From UHGV virus genome UHGV-0048975: a DNA stretch of 20,483 nucleotides. One strand, written 5' to 3'. A program made the position numbers and the translations under genes. Positions within the stretch are counted from its first letter, which is position 1; each line of letters starts with the position of its first letter. The notes beneath the pieces were generated by a model. It did not search any database. It saw only the letters and a list, made by a program, of their open reading frames with translations, and was not told where the DNA came from. This document shows, piece after piece, positions 8,878 through 15,121 of this stretch. Origin of the DNA: a virus.

Positions 8878-9561
8878 CTATGATTGAAGGGTGACTTTTT
8901 TTAACGTATCAAAAACGATTTTCGTAAACTCATTCTCATTTCTAACATCAATATAAGCAAGGCCGCTATTGGTGATCTTGAGCTTACCGGAATATTCTAA
9001 TGAATTAACAGAGCAAACAAGCCTGTCAATTCTTATTTTTTTACCCTCTAATTCTTCTTTATAATACTTCCTAAGATCATTGCTGCCAATTATTTGCATT
9101 TTAGCTGTGGCGTAATCAGAAACTCTAACCCTTGAAATATCAAGTTGTGTTAAATTGATATTTACACTTGAAGATATTTCATTAAGCCAGTCTATAGGGT
9201 TTATGTCAATTTCTTCCAAACTAACACCTAAGCCAAGATTTTTTACCAAAGCCTGCGAAAAAGGCTTTAAAGTTCTGGGTGGGTTAGTAATCTGCATTAC
9301 AGGAAGAGAGTCTAAAGCCACGCTAAAATTTGTGGTGCGATATTCGATTCTTTCAACGGTAGTTTCGCTTCCGTCAAAGCTTAATATTTTATCATGATAA
9401 ACAATACGCTCGACAAAGCGACCATTTGCAAAATCATGGCGTATTTTATCAAAAATGAACCCTTTCCCTTTATCCTCTGTAAAAGAATCAAGAGAAAGAC
9501 GTCTAACGGCTGTTTCAAACTCAAGCCGTATGTTTAACTTAAGCCATTTAACCTTTTTCAT
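8878..9561 (-). CDS. Hypothetical protein, third gene of three-gene cargo operon (227 aa)
   Basis: ATG at 9561 lies inside the 3' end of the upstream gene (14-nt overlap); AT-rich; no recognisable motif. Confidence 0.75.
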   Translation of the reverse strand: MKKVKWLKLNIRLEFETAVRRLSLDSFTEDKGKGFIFDKIRHDFANGRFVERIVYHDKILSFDGSETTVERIEYRTTNFSVALDSLPVMQITNPPRTLKPFSQALVKNLGLGVSLEEIDINPIDWLNEISSSVNINLTQLDISRVRVSDYATAKMQIIGSNDLRKYYKEELEGKKIRIDRLVCSVNSLEYSGKLKITNSGLAYIDVRNENEFTKIVFDTLKKVTLQS

Positions 9562-10627
9562 CTTCGTTCACCTCTGATCCTATTATTATATTATAGGCAT
9601 TTTCAGCGGCGGACTCAATTAATTCACTAATATGTTTTTTCTCTTGTGCCGTTGCCGCGCGAATGGTTACATTGAAACCGTCTTCTTTTTGATTGTTTAT
9701 ACCTTTAATTTGATAGGCAAAGTCACAGCATTTTTCTGAGTCTTTGAAAAATGCTTCGACGTTGATTCTGTCTCCAATTCCACTTGTCGGCTTTGAAGAC
9801 CATGCAATACGCCCGATATAATAACCTTTCTCATGTAGTTGAGAAAATATAGCTGAACTATTTACCCCTTCACCATTAAGGACGGCTTTCTTAACAAATC
9901 CGGTATCAATAGTTTCTTCCTTGTCTTCATCCTCACTAGCATCAGTACTGCGATTTAATTCGACTTTTGTTACGTCATCAGTCTCATAACCGCGTAGACC
10001 ATTCATTAATTCCTGAAAAAACTGACTTCGCAATGTAGGATCAGTTATTGCTAGTAATGATATTTCGAAGCGCTCGATAGGTTCGGACTTGATTTTAGAT
10101 AGCTCGTTTTGCAAGCTCTCAATAACTTTTTTTGCCTCGGGGTTTTGAGGCATACGTACTTCAACTTTGTCAGCTCCAGGGCGAAGTTCTATTATAACAT
10201 TCCGCTTGTCGATCTGACGTAATGCAGTTTTAGACAGGTCTATTTCTTCATATTTGTATTCTACTGTAAGCGAGCCATCTTTTTTAGCTACAATATTCAG
10301 GCTTTGACCTTTACTAGGGGAGCATGTTTTTTTTAGTGCTTCAGCAGCACTTTTTAATTCGGCCTGATTTGTTGAGGTTTGGAAGCTCACACTAGTAGTG
10401 CTTTCCCTTGGGTCATATGTTTTGACCAGTTTTTTTATGTGTTCTAATTCATTAAATCCGTGAGGAAGTTTGGATATTTCCTCGATTAGTATTTCCTTGT
10501 CGAGTTCTGGTGATAAAAACACACCTCGATTCAACAATAATTCATGCAACTTTGCAGCGGTTATCCTTTTATGATGTAATGCATCATAAATATTTTTATC
10601 AGTTGCGAAATATAGTTTTTTAGCCAT
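9548..10627 (-). CDS. Hypothetical protein, second gene of three-gene cargo operon (359 aa)
   Basis: Start overlaps the upstream stop (TAATG); acidic internal stretch; no Walker A or other known motif seen. Confidence 0.8.
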   Translation of the reverse strand: MAKKLYFATDKNIYDALHHKRITAAKLHELLLNRGVFLSPELDKEILIEEISKLPHGFNELEHIKKLVKTYDPRESTTSVSFQTSTNQAELKSAAEALKKTCSPSKGQSLNIVAKKDGSLTVEYKYEEIDLSKTALRQIDKRNVIIELRPGADKVEVRMPQNPEAKKVIESLQNELSKIKSEPIERFEISLLAITDPTLRSQFFQELMNGLRGYETDDVTKVELNRSTDASEDEDKEETIDTGFVKKAVLNGEGVNSSAIFSQLHEKGYYIGRIAWSSKPTSGIGDRINVEAFFKDSEKCCDFAYQIKGINNQKEDGFNVTIRAATAQEKKHISELIESAAENAYNIIIGSEVNEDEKG

Positions 10628-11628
10628 TATCGTTGCTCCATGCCGATTTGTTCAAGATTATATTCAACAACAATTTTGTCTGTCTTGTCGAAGTCAATTT
10701 TAAGAAAAAGTCTTTCATCCTCGCCTAAGAGCCAGTCTGTGCTGTATTTCTTTTTCGCTCTTTCAAAATGATGAATGGCATTTTCATTTGGGTGAATGTG
10801 ACAATGGCGTAATACGATTGGTTTACCTTCGGTTAATATCTGATAAGTTGATAACATATCAAAGAAGTAAACGAATTCGTCTACTGAATCCCCCGGTTGA
10901 TTGTAATAAACAACATATCCCTCAGGGTTTTTATCCCTGAGCCAACTGAAAGCCTCATGCTTTATTATAATGTATGGTGATGTTAATAATTCAATTGTTG
11001 CAGGTGTTGTCTGATTAATAGGGTGCTTTATTCTTGTTAGGGAAAGATCTGGATAATAATATGTGAACTTATCAGGTTGAGGAAGTTTGCCTGAACCAAT
11101 TAACTTAGTTATGTCAGAAGATATGTTTATCAAATCTGATATTTTATAAGGGTCAAGCAAATGTAGTTTGATGTTTGGAGGGCAATTTATAGATGAGTGA
11201 TCTAATTTTTTTGTAATATTCTCATAGAAGTCTTTATCATATAAATTATCATGGTTATATAAGAATAATAACCCTCTTACGTTATAACCTAAAGAATCAT
11301 CATGAACATATTTCAATCGCCATTCTTCACTGACATTTGCACACTCGGTAGCTAAAGCAAGCGATGTTAAAGCTCCCTCGACTATTTTTTTCCCAATAGT
11401 ACCTTCTGCATAGCTTTTGAGGTCTGTGTTGAGATAGACCATTTCCTCCTCATATGGATCTATGTAGAAAAATACAACATCGCTTGGATGTGTTTTCTTG
11501 GAATGAGCCTCTTGGCAACAATCCCAATTCATGTCCGCTCTAGCGGCACGATCCCATTTGAACACTGAGAAAATATCATCAGAAATCTTACCCGCGACTC
11601 GTTGTATAGCCGAAGTCTCTCCACCCAT
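10627..11628 (-). CDS. Hypothetical protein, first gene of three-gene cargo operon (333 aa); weak PD-(D/E)xK-like signature
   Basis: GGAG RBS 9 nt upstream of the ATG; possible nuclease-like pattern FFYIDP...MVYLNTDLK (tentative); AT-rich. Confidence 0.8.
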   Translation of the reverse strand: MGGETSAIQRVAGKISDDIFSVFKWDRAARADMNWDCCQEAHSKKTHPSDVVFFYIDPYEEEMVYLNTDLKSYAEGTIGKKIVEGALTSLALATECANVSEEWRLKYVHDDSLGYNVRGLLFLYNHDNLYDKDFYENITKKLDHSSINCPPNIKLHLLDPYKISDLINISSDITKLIGSGKLPQPDKFTYYYPDLSLTRIKHPINQTTPATIELLTSPYIIIKHEAFSWLRDKNPEGYVVYYNQPGDSVDEFVYFFDMLSTYQILTEGKPIVLRHCHIHPNENAIHHFERAKKKYSTDWLLGEDERLFLKIDFDKTDKIVVEYNLEQIGMEQR

Positions 11629-11778: not shown

Positions 11779-11801
11779 CCCGCCAGTTCTGGCGGGCTTT
11801 T
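11779..11801 (+). terminator. Intrinsic terminator-like hairpin CCCGCCA-GTTC-TGGCGGG followed by CTTTT, with no upstream plus-strand gene
   Basis: 7-bp GC stem, tetraloop and T-run on the plus strand only; no plus-strand CDS upstream, so it may end a small non-coding transcript or insulate the downstream module. Confidence 0.45.
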
Positions 11802-11933
11802 ACTTATGTCATGCAGGTGCATGAAAACCACTACACAAAGCGGGCAGGCGTGGCGGGGATACGAGCGCGCGCTGTGCGTGGTTGTAAAAGGAAATTGTTT
11901 TCGGTATAACCACTTCCATTAGAAGGAGAATTT

Positions 11934-12179
11934 ATGAAAATTTTTGCAATAGTCATTACATGTATGCTGGCATCGATTGCAGGATTATGGCTTTATATGG
12001 ATCCTGGTTTTGATTCTATTGTTGCATTTTTGGCTGCAGTTAGCGCTTTAGCTGGATTACTTATCACTACAAAAAATAAATATAATTCTATGAGCCAATC
12101 AGTTGGTGATAATTCAACTGCTGTCCAGGCTAGAGGTGATATTAAAATTGATTGTATAAATACAGGTGATAAAAAATAA
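11934..12179 (+). CDS. Small membrane protein (81 aa, two predicted TM helices)
   Basis: AAGGAG RBS; hydrophobic segments IFAIVITCMLASIAGLWLYM and IVAFLAAVSALAGLLITT; C-terminal tail shares a motif with the N-terminus of the next protein. Confidence 0.7.
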   Translation: MKIFAIVITCMLASIAGLWLYMDPGFDSIVAFLAAVSALAGLLITTKNKYNSMSQSVGDNSTAVQARGDIKIDCINTGDKK

Positions 12180-12188
12180 GGAGGATAT

Positions 12189-13046
12189 ATGTTTAGTGAT
12201 AAGCAAAAGCAACAAATAGGTAATAATTCGTATGCAATTCAAGCTGGAAATAATGTAAATGTTTCAGGGATGTCGTTTTCCGAGGTTAGAGAACTATTCA
12301 ACATTCTCTTCGAAAATCAGTTTCCAAAATTGAAAGATGTTGCTTATGCTGCAGCTCAAGAGAATGCAAAAGATTTTGAAGAGCGTGTCGTTTCGGATTT
12401 AACAAAAAACGTTGATAGATTGATTATTGATAAATTTTGCGATCCGGACGTTCAGGCTACATTGACTGAGGCATTAAAGTCATCAGCCAGGAAGGGAAAG
12501 AAAGCTAATATGGATGTGCTTTCTCAGTTGTTAGTTGAACGAGTCTCCAATAACAATGACGATTTTAGAGATATAGTTTTAACGGAGGCAGTTACCGTCG
12601 TTCCCAAGTTAACACAGCAACAAATATCACTTATAACGATAGTTTTTCTTCTCAAGAATGTTGAGATCAAAGACCCTGTTAATGGTGTTCGATTGGATTT
12701 GTTGGAGCACAATTTTAGAAACTTTGAATCAATGTATACTAATGGGTTTAATTTGTCTCAAGCCCAGATATATCACATTCAATATGCAGGGGCTTGTTCA
12801 TGGAATACTTTTTTAGGGATGGATGTTGAAGACTATTTTATGAGTAAATATCCGACTGATATAAAAGATAAGAGTGCATATATTTCAAATCTTAAGTTAG
12901 TTGCCCCTCATGTGTCTGCATTTTTAGAAAAATTTTCAAAGAGCAACTATCAAGGAATTGAATTAACAAGTGTAGGGCAAGCAATTGCTCTGGCTGTTTT
13001 TTCAAGATACGTAGGAAGATTGGATTATAATATTTGGTTAAAGTAG
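12189..13046 (+). CDS. Hypothetical cargo protein (285 aa), partner of the small membrane protein
   Basis: AAGGAGGA RBS immediately after the upstream stop; AT-rich; N-terminus KQQIGNNSYAIQAGNNVNV parallels SQSVGDNSTAVQARGDIKI in the upstream protein. Confidence 0.8.
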   Translation: MFSDKQKQQIGNNSYAIQAGNNVNVSGMSFSEVRELFNILFENQFPKLKDVAYAAAQENAKDFEERVVSDLTKNVDRLIIDKFCDPDVQATLTEALKSSARKGKKANMDVLSQLLVERVSNNNDDFRDIVLTEAVTVVPKLTQQQISLITIVFLLKNVEIKDPVNGVRLDLLEHNFRNFESMYTNGFNLSQAQIYHIQYAGACSWNTFLGMDVEDYFMSKYPTDIKDKSAYISNLKLVAPHVSAFLEKFSKSNYQGIELTSVGQAIALAVFSRYVGRLDYNIWLK

Positions 13047-13075
13047 GGCATTATTTGCCCTACTTTATTATAATT
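13043..13075. terminator. Bidirectional terminator hairpin GTAGGGCA-TTATT-TGCCCTAC followed by a T-rich run
   Basis: 8-bp stem overlapping the stop codon of the 285-aa gene, then TTTATTATAATT; lies between convergent genes. Confidence 0.6.
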
Positions 13076-13630
13076 CATATGGTTGGAAAGAAATTATTTC
13101 ATCACTCAACCATTCATTAATTTCTTTAATTCGCTTTTGCAGCGGTATCAATTCGTTACGGACAAACACCTTACTCGCCTTTTCCACATCCCCAAATCCC
13201 CCAACATTACTCGGCATAATCCCCATCATCTGCGGCGGAACGCGGTGTGCAGCCATCATGTCGTCTCGGCTCACGTTCTTAATGTTCAGAAACTCATCCT
13301 TTGCCGCTACCTCTGACAGCGGGATTATCTGAATCCCGTCCTTTTTGCCGTTGGGTGAATACATAAACAGGTTGCGGAAGTTGCCCGGTCCTTTAGCGCT
13401 TTTCATGGCCTGGCGGATGTTGTTCACGTCCTCCTGGTTCTGCGCGGCGTCGGTCATATACATGATGAACCCTGCATGACTGCCATTGATGTAGTATTTA
13501 CGCCGGAACAGCGTAGCGGACTCGTTCAGCAAGGCGGACGGAATGGCGGACAGATATTCCGGCAGGCCGTAAATTTCCTGGTTCAGGTCCGGCTCCATCA
13601 GGTGAAAGATACTGCCTTTAGTGAACTCGT
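13068..13630 (-). pseudogene. Portal protein gene remnant (3' half only; P2 gpQ-like)
   Basis: C-terminal portal-like sequence (...GIMPSNVGGFGDVEKASKVFVRNELIPLQKRIKEINEWL...); only ~180-190 codons where P2-type portals are about 340; the 5' boundary is approximate. Confidence 0.65.
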
Positions 13631-13639
13631 AGGGCTGCG

Positions 13640-13934
13640 TGGTTACACCCTGAACGTGGTGATTGAGGATTTCAGCGGCGACCAGAATCTGCTGATGGCC
13701 CCGGTTTTGCTGTGGCTGCGGGATAACCAGCCCGATGCCATCAATAACCCGGCGTTACGGGAAAAACTATTTACCTTTGAGGTGGATATTCTGCGCAACG
13801 ATGTCTGTGATATCAGCCTTAACCTGCAACTGACGGAACGTGTGCTGGTCAGCACTGACGGCAGTGTGTCGAGCGTTGAAGCGGTAGCAGAACCCGATGA
13901 ACCTGAAGAAATGTGGACGGTGAAACGTGGCTGA
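13640..13934 (+). pseudogene. Tail completion protein R gene remnant (3' part; P2 gpR-like)
   Basis: YTLNVVIEDFSGDQNLLMAPVLLWLRDNQPD...LNLQLTERVLVS resembles P2 gpR; the upstream part of the track ORF is antisense to the portal remnant, so the N-terminus is missing. Boundary approximate. Confidence 0.6.
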
Positions 13935-14373
13935 ACTGCAGAAGGTGGACGACTGGCTTAGTGCCTTACTGGCGAATCTGGAACCAGTCGCAAGAAGCCG
14001 CATGATGCGCCAGCTGGCGCAGGAACTGCGCCGGACACAGCAGCAGAATATCAGGATGCAGCGCAATCCAGATGGCAGCAGTTATGAACCGCGCAAGGTC
14101 ACGGCGCGCAGTAAAAAAGGCCGCATCAAACGTCAGATGTTTGCAAAGCTGCGCACCACCAAATACCTGAAAACTGCCGCCAGCGCCGATTCTGCCAGCG
14201 TGCAGTTTGAAGGTAAGGTGCAGCGCATTGCCCGCGTTCACCATTATGGCCTGCGCGATCGCGTCAGCCGCAAAGGACCGGAAGTGCGTTACGCAGAGCG
14301 TCGTTTGTTGGGTCTTAATGGTGAGTCTTACGTTCTAACTCTTGATATATTGAATAGATTCCTTCTGTCTTGA
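13927..14373 (+). CDS. Tail completion / virion morphogenesis protein S (P2 gpS-like)
   Basis: 148 aa, GTG start overlapping the R stop; basic central region typical of the gpS family; the last ~17 codons are AT-rich and overlap the convergent membrane-protein gene. Confidence 0.8.
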   Translation: MAELQKVDDWLSALLANLEPVARSRMMRQLAQELRRTQQQNIRMQRNPDGSSYEPRKVTARSKKGRIKRQMFAKLRTTKYLKTAASADSASVQFEGKVQRIARVHHYGLRDRVSRKGPEVRYAERRLLGLNGESYVLTLDILNRFLLS

Positions 14374-15121
14374 ATTCACCATATGCCCAATGAATTGCAT
14401 TTTTTTGTTCAGTCAGAATATATTTCCTAACTTTTTTAGAATAGTGAATGGTCAGTATAAAACCCAAAGAAATCCATAATAGAATAAATATGGTTGTTGG
14501 GGCAAAGGAATAGATAAAGAATTTGTCTTTAACGAAATTCTTGACTTCTTCATCAATGTAAGCATTCCCTTCATCAGTGGTTAGTAGTTTACAAAGAATT
14601 TCTTTATGTTCGATAGTTAATGATTTGTACTTCTCTGTACTGGCAGAGGATGACTCTTCGCAATCATCCTTTGATATTTCCCAATCAGGAGTGGTTAATA
14701 TTGTAGCTGCAGTCGCCAGTTTTTTTGACATATAAAATGATTCACCGGATTTTATCCAATAAAGCAATGTGCTATTTGGTGGGGTTCTAATGGCTTGGAT
14801 GAAAACTGGACCAAAAATATAAATTGCACACAAAAAAAGAAGTGAAAAGAGAACCGTGATTGATTTTTCAGCCCATGTGATAGTAGGCAGCCTTTTTAAT
14901 GATATTCGTATAAGAAAAAAATTCAATATAAACGCAGGTATTCCTGATTTTTTCAAAATTACATCATGAGATTTTCTATATTTGAATAGTGCTCTTATAA
15001 CTATCGTCACCAAAGTTATAACAGCTCCAATAATGGAAATCCATGCGGCAAGTGCCGCTGCCGGGGTGTTTAAAAATTCAGCATTAAATATATTAGAACT
15101 TATTGGATTCATAACACTCAT
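14315..15121 (-). CDS. AT-rich multi-pass membrane protein (268 aa) inserted between tail genes S and V
   Basis: GGTGG RBS 4 nt upstream of the ATG; several hydrophobic helices (AALAAWISIIGAVITLVTIVI, ITVLFSLLFLCAIYIFGPVFI, IFILLWISLGFILTI); opposite strand to the tail genes. Confidence 0.75.
   Translation of the reverse strand: MSVMNPISSNIFNAEFLNTPAAALAAWISIIGAVITLVTIVIRALFKYRKSHDVILKKSGIPAFILNFFLIRISLKRLPTITWAEKSITVLFSLLFLCAIYIFGPVFIQAIRTPPNSTLLYWIKSGESFYMSKKLATAATILTTPDWEISKDDCEESSSASTEKYKSLTIEHKEILCKLLTTDEGNAYIDEEVKNFVKDKFFIYSFAPTTIFILLWISLGFILTIHYSKKVRKYILTEQKNAIHWAYGEFKTEGIYSIYQELERKTHH

Follow-up and report, generated by a model that had tools for sequence, protein, structure and literature searches.

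A two-gene cargo module of a P2-like Escherichia coli prophage as a candidate abortive-infection system with a shared motif resembling bacterial amyloid signalling motifs

The DNA analysed here, referred to as the window, is the whole 20,483-nucleotide stretch of the virus genome UHGV-0048975, a P2-like prophage of Escherichia coli that is 98.6–99.9% identical to the prophage of strain H3. It carries a pair of adjacent genes, one for an 81-aa membrane protein and one for a 285-aa protein of the LPO_1073/Vpar_1526 family, and each product bears one copy of the same short motif in a flexible tail. Judging from the sequences, the pair is probably a variant of the amyloid-signalling anti-phage systems. 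The features of the pair are the following:

11934..12179, plus strand: gene of the 81-aa protein with two transmembrane (TM) helices (phrog_27656; WP_000687980), proposed as the membrane effector
11937..12071, plus strand: the two TM helices and the conserved loop W19-x4-P24-G-F-D-S, from hydropathy, the K/R distribution and the family alignments (A5 and A6)
12090..12152, plus strand: C-terminal motif copy, residues 53-73, MSQSVGDNSTAVQARGDIKID, for which a cytoplasmic location and, in the monomer, disorder are predicted (tail pLDDT 42-68)
12189..13046, plus strand: gene of the 285-aa LPO_1073/Vpar_1526 family protein (WP_000490525; phrog_19542), proposed as the sensor or regulator
12204..12266, plus strand: N-terminal motif copy, residues 6-26, QKQQIGNNSYAIQAGNNVNVS, outside the family domain and predicted to be disordered by AlphaFold2 (AF2)
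12267..13040, plus strand: LPO_1073 domain, all-alpha, 13 helices

Both open reading frames were found on the same strand at the coordinates given by the original prediction, a note made earlier from the letters of the window. That note had described a motif of 19 residues with about eight identities. The motif proved to be real and to span 21 residues, and the window pair taken alone gives a marginal match: BLASTP of residues 51-72 of the small protein against residues 4-25 of the large one yields 21.9 bits and E = 0.002, with 7/22 positions identical and 14/22 positive. The similarity becomes compelling because the same two positions are occupied in all homologous loci whose upstream sequence is long enough. 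A scan of genome, viral and metagenome collections with the large-protein alignment gave 78 loci; wherever the upstream sequence sufficed, a small TM gene carrying the motif at its C-terminal end preceded the large gene. Four loci that appeared to lack a TM partner (L016, L052, L068 and L078) all proved to have one. Represented among the 48 non-redundant pairs are Beta-, Gamma- and Alphaproteobacteria, Chlorobiaceae, Brocadiaceae, Polaribacter, Bryobacterales and Desulfomonile, at least six phyla in all, and their overall protein identity across phyla is 35-43%. The gap between the paired genes is -14 to +16 bp in 47 of the 48 and 289 bp in the other one.

On both sides, the motif follows the pattern Q-x-Q-x-V-x-x-x-S-x-[G small/A large]-I-Q-A-G-[R/G]-[D/N]-[V/I/A]-x-[I/V/Y]. 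The central Q is invariant in both partners of the 48 pairs, a common consensus is found at 14 of the 21 columns, and the mean identity of the two motifs within a pair is 45%. In the small protein, Q65 and A66 are invariant and Q53, Q55, G63, I64 and G67 nearly so. In the large protein, Q8 is invariant in both alignments used, one of 25 sequences (A1) and one of 120 (A2), while A16, Q18, A19 and G20 are invariant in the first and conserved in at least 90% of the second. The original prediction had read the likeness as a partial duplication or domain shuffling. This part was not supported, since both copies are kept across Proteobacteria, Chlorobiaceae, Brocadiaceae, Bacteroidota, Acidobacteriota and Desulfobacterota, and such conservation rules out chance and a recent partial duplication. 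On the evidence of these alignments the motif is an old functional element. A reading of the likeness as functionless, a coincidence or the trace of a recent local duplication, could point to the weak match seen in the window (E = 0.002, 7/22 identities), and it is refuted by the presence of the motif on both partners in 48 pairs, with its invariant Q and near-invariant A-G; we give it practically no weight.

The two motifs of a pair also vary together. At position +3 the paired motifs read R/R in 24 cases, G/G in 17, R/G in three and G/R in none (Fisher 1.7e-9), and the summed identity of cognate motifs was 454, compared with 420.8 ± 8.8 when the partners were permuted (p = 0.0003). In a divergent pair (L078/L079) both motifs have changed together to I-N-V-Q-A-G-R-D. 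These observations bear on the proposal that the motif is a tag for a third party, for example a protein of the phage, a protease or a chaperone of the host, with no contact between the motifs of the two partners. The location of the motif on exposed, disordered termini would suit such a tag; a fixed recognition site, however, predicts no covariation between loci, the concerted change in L078 included. Moreover, an effector motif at the C-terminus and a partner motif at the N-terminus, encoded by adjacent genes, is a hallmark of homotypic signalling motifs, and we regard the tag as very improbable.

The allele present in the window is itself unusual. Residues 62-67 (12117..12134) belong to the stretch STAVQARGD, which reads SIGVQAGGD in a 96%-identical allele (L002, L027 and L028 were compared); this second allele is carried by E. 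coli PEC422 and by three IMG/VR viral contigs. The two alleles differ at five amino acids, three of which, among them the near-invariant G67, belong to the motif. These changes could represent specificity tuning or partial inactivation. The 'QARGD' allele need not be defective, because it is seen on 404 contigs and the same string is also present in genuine BASS1 motifs (Dyrka et al. 2020, bioRxiv 10.1101/2020.01.06.895854).

In the homologous loci, the neighbours of the pair include genes for terminase, P2-type portal, integrase, relaxase/T4CP, C5-methylase, SbcC-like ATPase, S8 peptidase and PIN proteins, and some of the pairs form islets between housekeeping genes. Such surroundings are typical of a mobile accessory or defence module. 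Among plasmids and sequenced phage isolates the large protein is hardly ever found. In Nitrospirillum viridazoti (L016, 2771..4852) two LPO_1073 paralogues in tandem, each with an N-terminal motif of its own, come after a single small TM gene, an arrangement in which two sensors may feed one effector.

The 81-aa protein was correctly described in the original prediction as a two-helix membrane protein: hydropathy and AF2 both place TM helices at about 2-22 and 26/28-46. The AF2 model, built with 121 homologues, is a helical hairpin (H2-22 and H26-44, pLDDT 84-88) followed by a coil tail. K/R distribution is +1.3 at the N-terminus, -0.67 in the loop and +1.4 after TM2, and therefore an N-in/C-in topology is predicted, with the C-terminal tail in the cytoplasm. 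A search with the single sequence retrieved three clusters only, and a profile of locus-derived sequences was needed to recover a family of 415 clusters, 74-114 aa long, none of which contains a Pfam domain. Residues W19 and P24 and, in the tail, Q53, Q55, G63, I64, Q65, A66 and G67 are conserved in this family, the motif being its most conserved part. Against PADLOC, the protein gave a weak match to the CBASS '2TM effector' model PDLC00710 (E = 0.017). Together with a size and an N-in/C-in topology like those of class II holins, and with a two-gene operon in which the toxin gene would come first, this match could indicate a toxin–antitoxin pair, in which a holin-like two-TM toxin would be held by the LPO_1073 protein through the motif until loss of the antitoxin, induced by a phage, set it free. 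No degron or protease partner is evident, and the fused relatives described below also bear on this proposal.

The 285-aa protein matches the NCBIfam model NF045477 with 243.4 bits (cut-off 45) and E = 3e-72, residues 27-284 aligning with positions 1-257 of the 257 of the model, and RefSeq labels identical proteins as LPO_1073/Vpar_1526 family. Among its homologues, the Pfam entry PF28206 ('Vpar_1526') is precomputed, with no function attached. This family, NF045477/PF28206, is uncharacterised. An exhaustive profile search collected 2,290 representative clusters at E ≤ 1e-3, with 263 of them at E ≤ 1e-30. According to AF2 (120 homologues), residues 30-285 form a confident all-alpha domain of 256 residues (pLDDT 85.8, pTM 0.81), and residues 1-24 have pLDDT values below 50. 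Foldseek found no structural relatives of this fold at E ≤ 1e-3 in PDB or BFVD, and the full-length profile matched no PDB sequence. NF045477 is the sole domain match of the protein, which has no NTPase domain, and neither the searched copy of Pfam nor PADLOC nor PHROGs provided a function for either member of the pair. A match to the phage T4 Cef family (PF24050 / phrog_1354) at E = 0.007, below the cut-off and given by one of 25 homologues only, was set aside as chance.

Two groups of longer relatives were also noted. P0326 (396 aa) and P0383 (374 aa) have an N-terminal helical extension of 90-140 residues (MEIDEIL.../MPIDSII...) followed by a motif-like stretch, and the beginning of this extension is reminiscent, in sequence, of the signature described for Bell/HeLo-type domains. 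In a subfamily of 340-364 aa that includes P0322, P0349, P0354 and similar proteins, the N-terminal motif is kept (e.g. KVGNNSTSIQAGGDMYI) and an insertion of about 65 residues lies in the C-terminal half of the domain.

The 150 top representatives of the family of the large protein include single-polypeptide versions of the pair. In P0348, one TM helix is followed by the motif in two tandem copies (NQIQIGGDFNV and LITQAGRDVNY) and then by the LPO_1073 domain; in P0378 and P0307 a single motif lies between TM helix and domain; and in P0341 and P0355 the motif between the TM helix and the domain is degenerate. Another five proteins (P0338, P0367, P0369, P0377 and P0379) show an N-terminal domain, a motif-like linker and the LPO_1073 domain. 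The N-terminal domain of P0338, compared by phmmer with PDB, matches an HNH endonuclease (9om4_A, E = 1.7e-8) and Cap5 HNH-SAVED proteins (7rwm, 7rwk and 8ysq, E = 3e-4 to 1e-3); the other four share its cysteine/histidine pattern, as seen by eye or with a regular expression. Pfam missed this HNH domain. The eight fusions scanned and two other extended relatives are genuine members of NF045477 (155-296 bits). In the two contigs examined, those of P0338 and P0348, no small TM gene lies upstream, and the fused genes stand alone.

In these fusions the nuclease and the TM segment take the same N-terminal place ahead of a constant C-terminal LPO_1073 domain. An effector at the N-terminus with a sensor at the C-terminus is also the order seen in Cap5, in NLRs and in the all-in-one counterparts of amyloid signalling pairs. 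Because a TM segment or an HNH domain is joined N-terminally of the motif and the LPO_1073 domain, the latter is likely to be a sensor or regulator and the membrane protein its effector, or executioner. The original prediction was thus right about a membrane protein paired with a soluble protein in an architecture like that of abortive infection, and its assignment of roles, a membrane anchor and a soluble effector, is probably reversed. A TM or HNH module covalently joined to LPO_1073 fits a labile antitoxin poorly, and in the Bab/Agp system, which is discussed below, neither protein is toxic by itself and only the combination is; the toxin–antitoxin proposal is, in our judgement, quite improbable. 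The fusions keep the motif, which suggests that it could be primarily an oligomerisation element of the sensor, which the copy of a separate effector would then join.

The same fusions can be read in another way, as evidence that the LPO_1073 domain works while attached to the membrane. The motifs would then join in a closed heteromeric beta-sheet and thereby hold the LPO_1073 protein at the inner membrane permanently; the pair would be a split membrane protein, and its active part would be LPO_1073, acting for instance in superinfection exclusion at the level of DNA entry or the envelope, with no templating or switching. The persistence of the motif in the fusions agrees with this, as does the detection of Vpar_1526 in a membrane-fraction proteome, a list that contains its only mention in the literature, and the close spacing of the genes suggests roughly equal expression of both proteins. 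On the other hand, the HNH fusions have no membrane anchor and place a classic effector where the TM module would be, the composition of the motif and its likeness to BASS1 exceed the needs of a simple tether, and both tails are predicted to be disordered and not docked on the domain. A permanent tether is therefore an unlikely explanation, if the least unlikely of the rivals considered here.

The motif resembles, in sequence, the bacterial amyloid signalling motifs. The RHIM of RIPK1 reads NSTGIQIG and was at first likened to the string NSTGIQxG of the pair's motif. This candidate was rejected: the Pfam RHIM model was unmatched, the motif profile found no PDB chain of RIPK1 or RIPK3 at E ≤ 10, BASS3 and RHIM sequences did not score above shuffles, and BASS1 was a better match. 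Comparison by hhalign of the motif alignment (A3) with an alignment of BASS1 (A4) gave a probability of 81.9% and P = 1.1e-5, with 17 columns in register. With the hidden Markov model (HMM) of the motif, the BASS1 motifs of the Bell side scored above their own shuffles (median empirical p 0.0017, with 82% at p < 0.01), and BASS2-7 did not. In Table S2 of the BASS survey, the BASS1 motif of the Bell proteins reads ..ASGSARIYQAGRDQHITER and that of the NLRs ..ASGSARIYQAGGDQYIEE (Dyrka et al. 2020). In register, the BASS1 cores ..ASGSARIYQAGRDQHI.. (Bell) and ..YQAGGDQYI.. (NLR) face ..VSGSSVGIQAGRDVNI.. and ..STAIQAGGNVTV.. of the pair, and on both sides of the comparison there is a QAG[R/G]D core with a preceding S-G-S, a following hydrophobic position and an alternation of R and G after QAG. 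The core letters differ (YQAGRDQHI in BASS1 and IQAGRDVNI here), and the strings IQAGRD, IQAGGD, IQAGGN, VQAGRD and LQAGRD are all absent from the BASS table of Dyrka et al. (2020).

The composition of the motif (Q 15.3%, G 14.1%, V 8.9%, I 8.3%, N 6.9%, P 0%, L 1.5% and K 2.5%) is skewed in the way reported for BASS and for the amyloid signalling motifs of fungi, with Q, N, G, V and I raised and P, L and K lowered (Dyrka et al. 2020). BASS1 forms amyloid fibrils and prions experimentally, and the BASS pairs that cross-seed are 43-56% identical, a range that contains the 45% mean identity of the paired motifs. The alternation QxQxV / SxGIQA / GRD / VNI is compatible with three short strands. 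That the tails act by true amyloid templating specifically is plausible, and we place its probability a little below even.

The remaining features of the locus, which concern its expression and limits, are these:

11779..11796, plus strand: terminator-like hairpin upstream of the module, 7-bp stem with 6 GC pairs and a T-rich tail
11882..11910, plus strand: candidate sigma-70 promoter TTGTAA-17 nt-TATAAC, proposed by eye only
11923..11928, plus strand: ribosome-binding site AAGGAG of the 81-aa gene, read in the sequence
12180..12184, plus strand: ribosome-binding site GGAGG of the 285-aa gene, read in the sequence within the 9-bp gap
13039..13067, no strand assigned: hairpin terminator common to the module and the convergent portal-gene remnant, 12-pair stem and 5-nt loop

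The gap of 9 bp with a ribosome-binding site, which had been noted earlier, was confirmed, and since the GGAGG of the 285-aa gene lies inside it, the arrangement suggests that the two genes are co-transcribed and possibly translationally coupled. The predicted strong bidirectional terminator at the end of the module corresponds to the hairpin with a 12-bp stem that separates it from the convergent portal remnant. The AT-richness of the module was likewise borne out, with a GC fraction of about 0.345 over 12001-13000 as against 0.45-0.59 in the phage backbone. A promoter scan made no call at 11882..11910, because the -10 hexamer ends in C.

The module has the replication gene A/DinI region on one side and the portal gene Q on the other. 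The cos-proximal locus of P2-like prophages, from gpA to gpQ, has been defined as a defence hotspot, and the exact locus (WP_000687980 and WP_000490525 with three Hp proteins) is present in a supplementary table of that study, with all its genes labelled 'hypothetical' (Rousset et al. 2022, PMC9122126). The gene pair is thus already catalogued and was never singled out. It was found in six of 5,426 complete E. coli genomes and also in Salmonella. In strain PEC422 the pair is still beside Q although the adjoining cargo differs; the module is therefore autonomous, which supports the earlier description of a self-contained two-gene module in a hotspot of defence cargo.

The neighbouring three-gene operon (8878..11628, minus strand) matches the PADLOC models Hp1, Hp2 and Hp3 end to end (E 1e-157 to 1e-248), and its middle protein has a weak NCBIfam match to GapS4b, far below the cut-off (E = 2e-5). 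We take these models to represent Rousset's validated three-gene system, on the assumption that it is the one named 'Rst_3HP' in DefenseFinder. A system of three genes without predicted domains protects against P1 (Rousset et al. 2022, PMC9122126), and the neighbouring operon is probably this '3HP' system.

A segment of about 170 bp that holds the 11779..11796 hairpin and surrounds 11848..11866 is conserved, without annotation, in some 1250 E. coli records (1256 are matched by query positions 1-172). The sequence at 11848..11866, GGCGTGGCGGGGATACGAG, resembles what we take to be the 19-nt cohesive-end sequence of P2/186. If cos is located there, the module would occupy the far left end of the packaged genome, flanked by cos and Q, with 3HP across cos.

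The portal gene of the window is cut down to a C-terminal fragment of 176 aa (13068..13598). Relative to strain H3, the window is without 5,065 bp (L001 13951-19015), with an 8-bp overlap at the junction (13642..13649); the missing segment comprises the N-terminal part of the portal, terminase P, scaffold O, capsid N, M and a lysC fragment. This loss of portal and capsid genes makes the prophage defective, though the cargo was kept. At 14315..15121 on the minus strand, an AT-rich gene (GC about 0.33) for a 268-aa membrane protein with DUF6216 (E = 7e-12) is inserted antisense between the tail/virion-morphogenesis genes and the baseplate gene V, in what looks like a second cargo (moron) site of the prophage.

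We lean, by a modest margin of confidence, towards a model in which the pair is a two-gene defence candidate of the abortive-infection type, carried as cargo of the P2-like prophage, and in which a signal passes through the motif from sensor to effector. The 285-aa protein would be a cytoplasmic sensor or regulator and the 81-aa protein a membrane effector, with one motif in the flexible tail of each. A phage cue would presumably cause the LPO_1073 domains to self-associate, and the N-terminal tails of the sensors would then pass from a disordered state to stacked beta structure, forming an amyloid-like nucleus. The tails of the two-TM protein, which would lie in the cytoplasm and bear the same type of motif, would be drawn into this beta nucleus or templated by it. 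The two-TM hairpins would cluster as a result, the inner membrane would be permeabilised, and the infected cell would be killed or arrested. We infer the defence function, the direction of signalling, the amyloid or cross-beta assembly and the permeabilisation of the membrane.

Several observations support this model. The pair and both motif copies are kept in 48 loci as collinear genes, the partners' motifs co-vary, and AF2 predicts disordered motif tails beside a confident TM hairpin and an all-alpha domain. The module is situated in the P2 hotspot beside the probable 3HP system, and all-in-one relatives that join TM or HNH modules to LPO_1073 exist. The motif has the composition bias of BASS and fungal amyloid signalling motifs, and its profile is like that of BASS1, for which fibrils and prions have been obtained experimentally. 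In addition, Bab/Agp, an abortive-infection system of an E. coli prophage, is an experimental precedent in which the sensor of amyloid signalling is not an NLR.

Other observations weigh against the model. Retention of the motif, or of a remnant of it, in the fusions is not predicted by pure trans-templating, and a general oligomerisation element, either a closed beta assembly or an open amyloid, would fit the sequences equally well. The covariation of the motifs is supportive and not decisive, as it is confounded by the co-inheritance and common ancestry of both genes, and at motif position +2, where G is nearly invariant, the allele of the window carries R (1 of 48). The BASS1 likeness comes from one short profile comparison, so that convergence is possible; the BASS1 motifs of the NLR side were only weakly above shuffles with the motif HMM (median p 0.08), and the motif profile matched none of the PDB sequences. 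As modelled, the LPO_1073 fold offers no hint of a ligand or trigger. PADLOC 2.0 gave no match to the 285-aa protein and none to the 81-aa protein better than E = 0.017, compared with E < 1e-150 for the neighbours, and literature searches for LPO_1073, Vpar_1526, PF28206 and the motif strings returned nothing on the function of the family.

To our knowledge, Bab/Agp is the only bacterial amyloid-signalling defence system demonstrated to work. Amyloid signalling in antiphage defence is thus known, and the novelty here would lie in the family of the sensor, in an effector integral to the membrane, in the subclass of the motif and in the breadth across unicellular bacteria and prophages; BASS motifs were tied originally to NLRs, Bell domains and multicellular bacteria (Dyrka et al. 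2020). If the model is true, the pair adds a sensor family with an orphan fold and a minimal integral-membrane executioner, and its motif links cargo of E. coli and Salmonella prophages to the best-characterised amyloid motif of Streptomyces. With two genes in 1.1 kb, it offers a compact and easily tested model of how a motif of 20 residues might pass a death signal to the membrane. It also provides a first functional hypothesis for thousands of entries named 'LPO_1073/Vpar_1526 family protein', and one for a locus that is only 'hypothetical' in the catalogue of the P2 hotspot. More tentatively, and with less confidence than in amyloid templating itself, the LPO_1073/Vpar_1526 family (at least 2,290 clusters at 50% identity) might be a widespread NTPase-free platform of immune sensors that uses a BASS1-like amyloid motif in trans, with two-TM partners, and in cis, with TM or HNH modules. 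Amyloid-type signalling would in that case be common in unicellular Gram-negative bacteria and their phages, with either a common origin with BASS1 or a striking convergence.

Amyloid signalling architectures were described first in fungi, with HET-S/NWD2, and then in bacterial Bell/NLR pairs with BASS1-10, 57% of whose gene pairs are at distances of 10 bp or less (Dyrka et al. 2020); the genes of the window are 9 bp apart. The pair shares with these systems adjacent collinear genes with a short gap, motifs of about 21 aa at the C-terminus of one protein and the N-terminus of the other (53-73 of 81 and 6-26 of 285) and the existence of fusions that combine effector and receptor. It departs from their original definition in that the receptor has no NLR architecture (NB-ARC/NACHT plus repeats), and the place of Bell/HeLo or another immune effector domain is taken by a two-TM hairpin with no Pfam or PADLOC family. 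The BASS1 Bell/NLR pairs of Streptomyces likewise have the effector motif at the C-terminus, the receptor motif at the N-terminus and gaps or overlaps of a few bp. In contrast, BASS1 partners are NB-ARC/TPR NLRs and Bell proteins of filamentous Actinobacteria, whereas the pair has neither an NTPase nor a Bell domain and is found in unicellular Proteobacteria, other phyla and phages. HET-S/NWD2 of Podospora anserina is similar in that a receptor with a single N-terminal repeat is encoded beside a membrane-targeting executioner with a C-terminal motif, and in that all-in-one forms occur alongside split ones; it differs in being eukaryotic, with a pore-forming HeLo domain, a NACHT-WD receptor, the HRAM motif and two pseudorepeats on the effector.

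The likeness to Cap5 (HNH-SAVED) concerns the fused relatives and not the genes of the window: both have the effector at the N-terminus and the sensor at the C-terminus, but the C-terminal domain of the relatives is LPO_1073 and not SAVED, and no cyclase is linked to them, so that a nucleotide signal is not implied. Class II holins, pinholins and the 2TM effectors of CBASS are small like the 81-aa protein, and like it they have two TM helices in N-in/C-in topology and a tail that is hydrophilic and cytoplasmic. The W-x4-P-G-F-D-S loop and the C-terminal motif, however, are specific to the 81-aa family, which showed no significant match to holin or 2TM effector families in Pfam or PADLOC.

The Bab/Agp system, from a prophage of E. 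coli ECOR25, protects against T5 by abortive infection and is toxic only when both proteins are present; proline substitutions in either motif inactivate it, and amyloid templating from sensor to effector was shown (Ibarlosa et al., bioRxiv 10.1101/2024.11.07.622273). Its effector is a soluble Bell-like helical bundle, unlike the integral two-TM hairpin of the pair, and its motif BASS11 (I87-G-S-V..Q92..D99-N100), compared by the quoted residue numbers only, is misaligned with QxQxVxxxSxGIQAGRDVNI. Nevertheless, both systems consist of adjacent collinear genes in a defence locus of an E. coli prophage, and in both a small membrane-targeting protein with a C-terminal motif of about 20 aa is encoded next to a larger non-NLR partner with an N-terminal copy. 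By this analogy, Bab/Agp is the closest experimental precedent of the pair.

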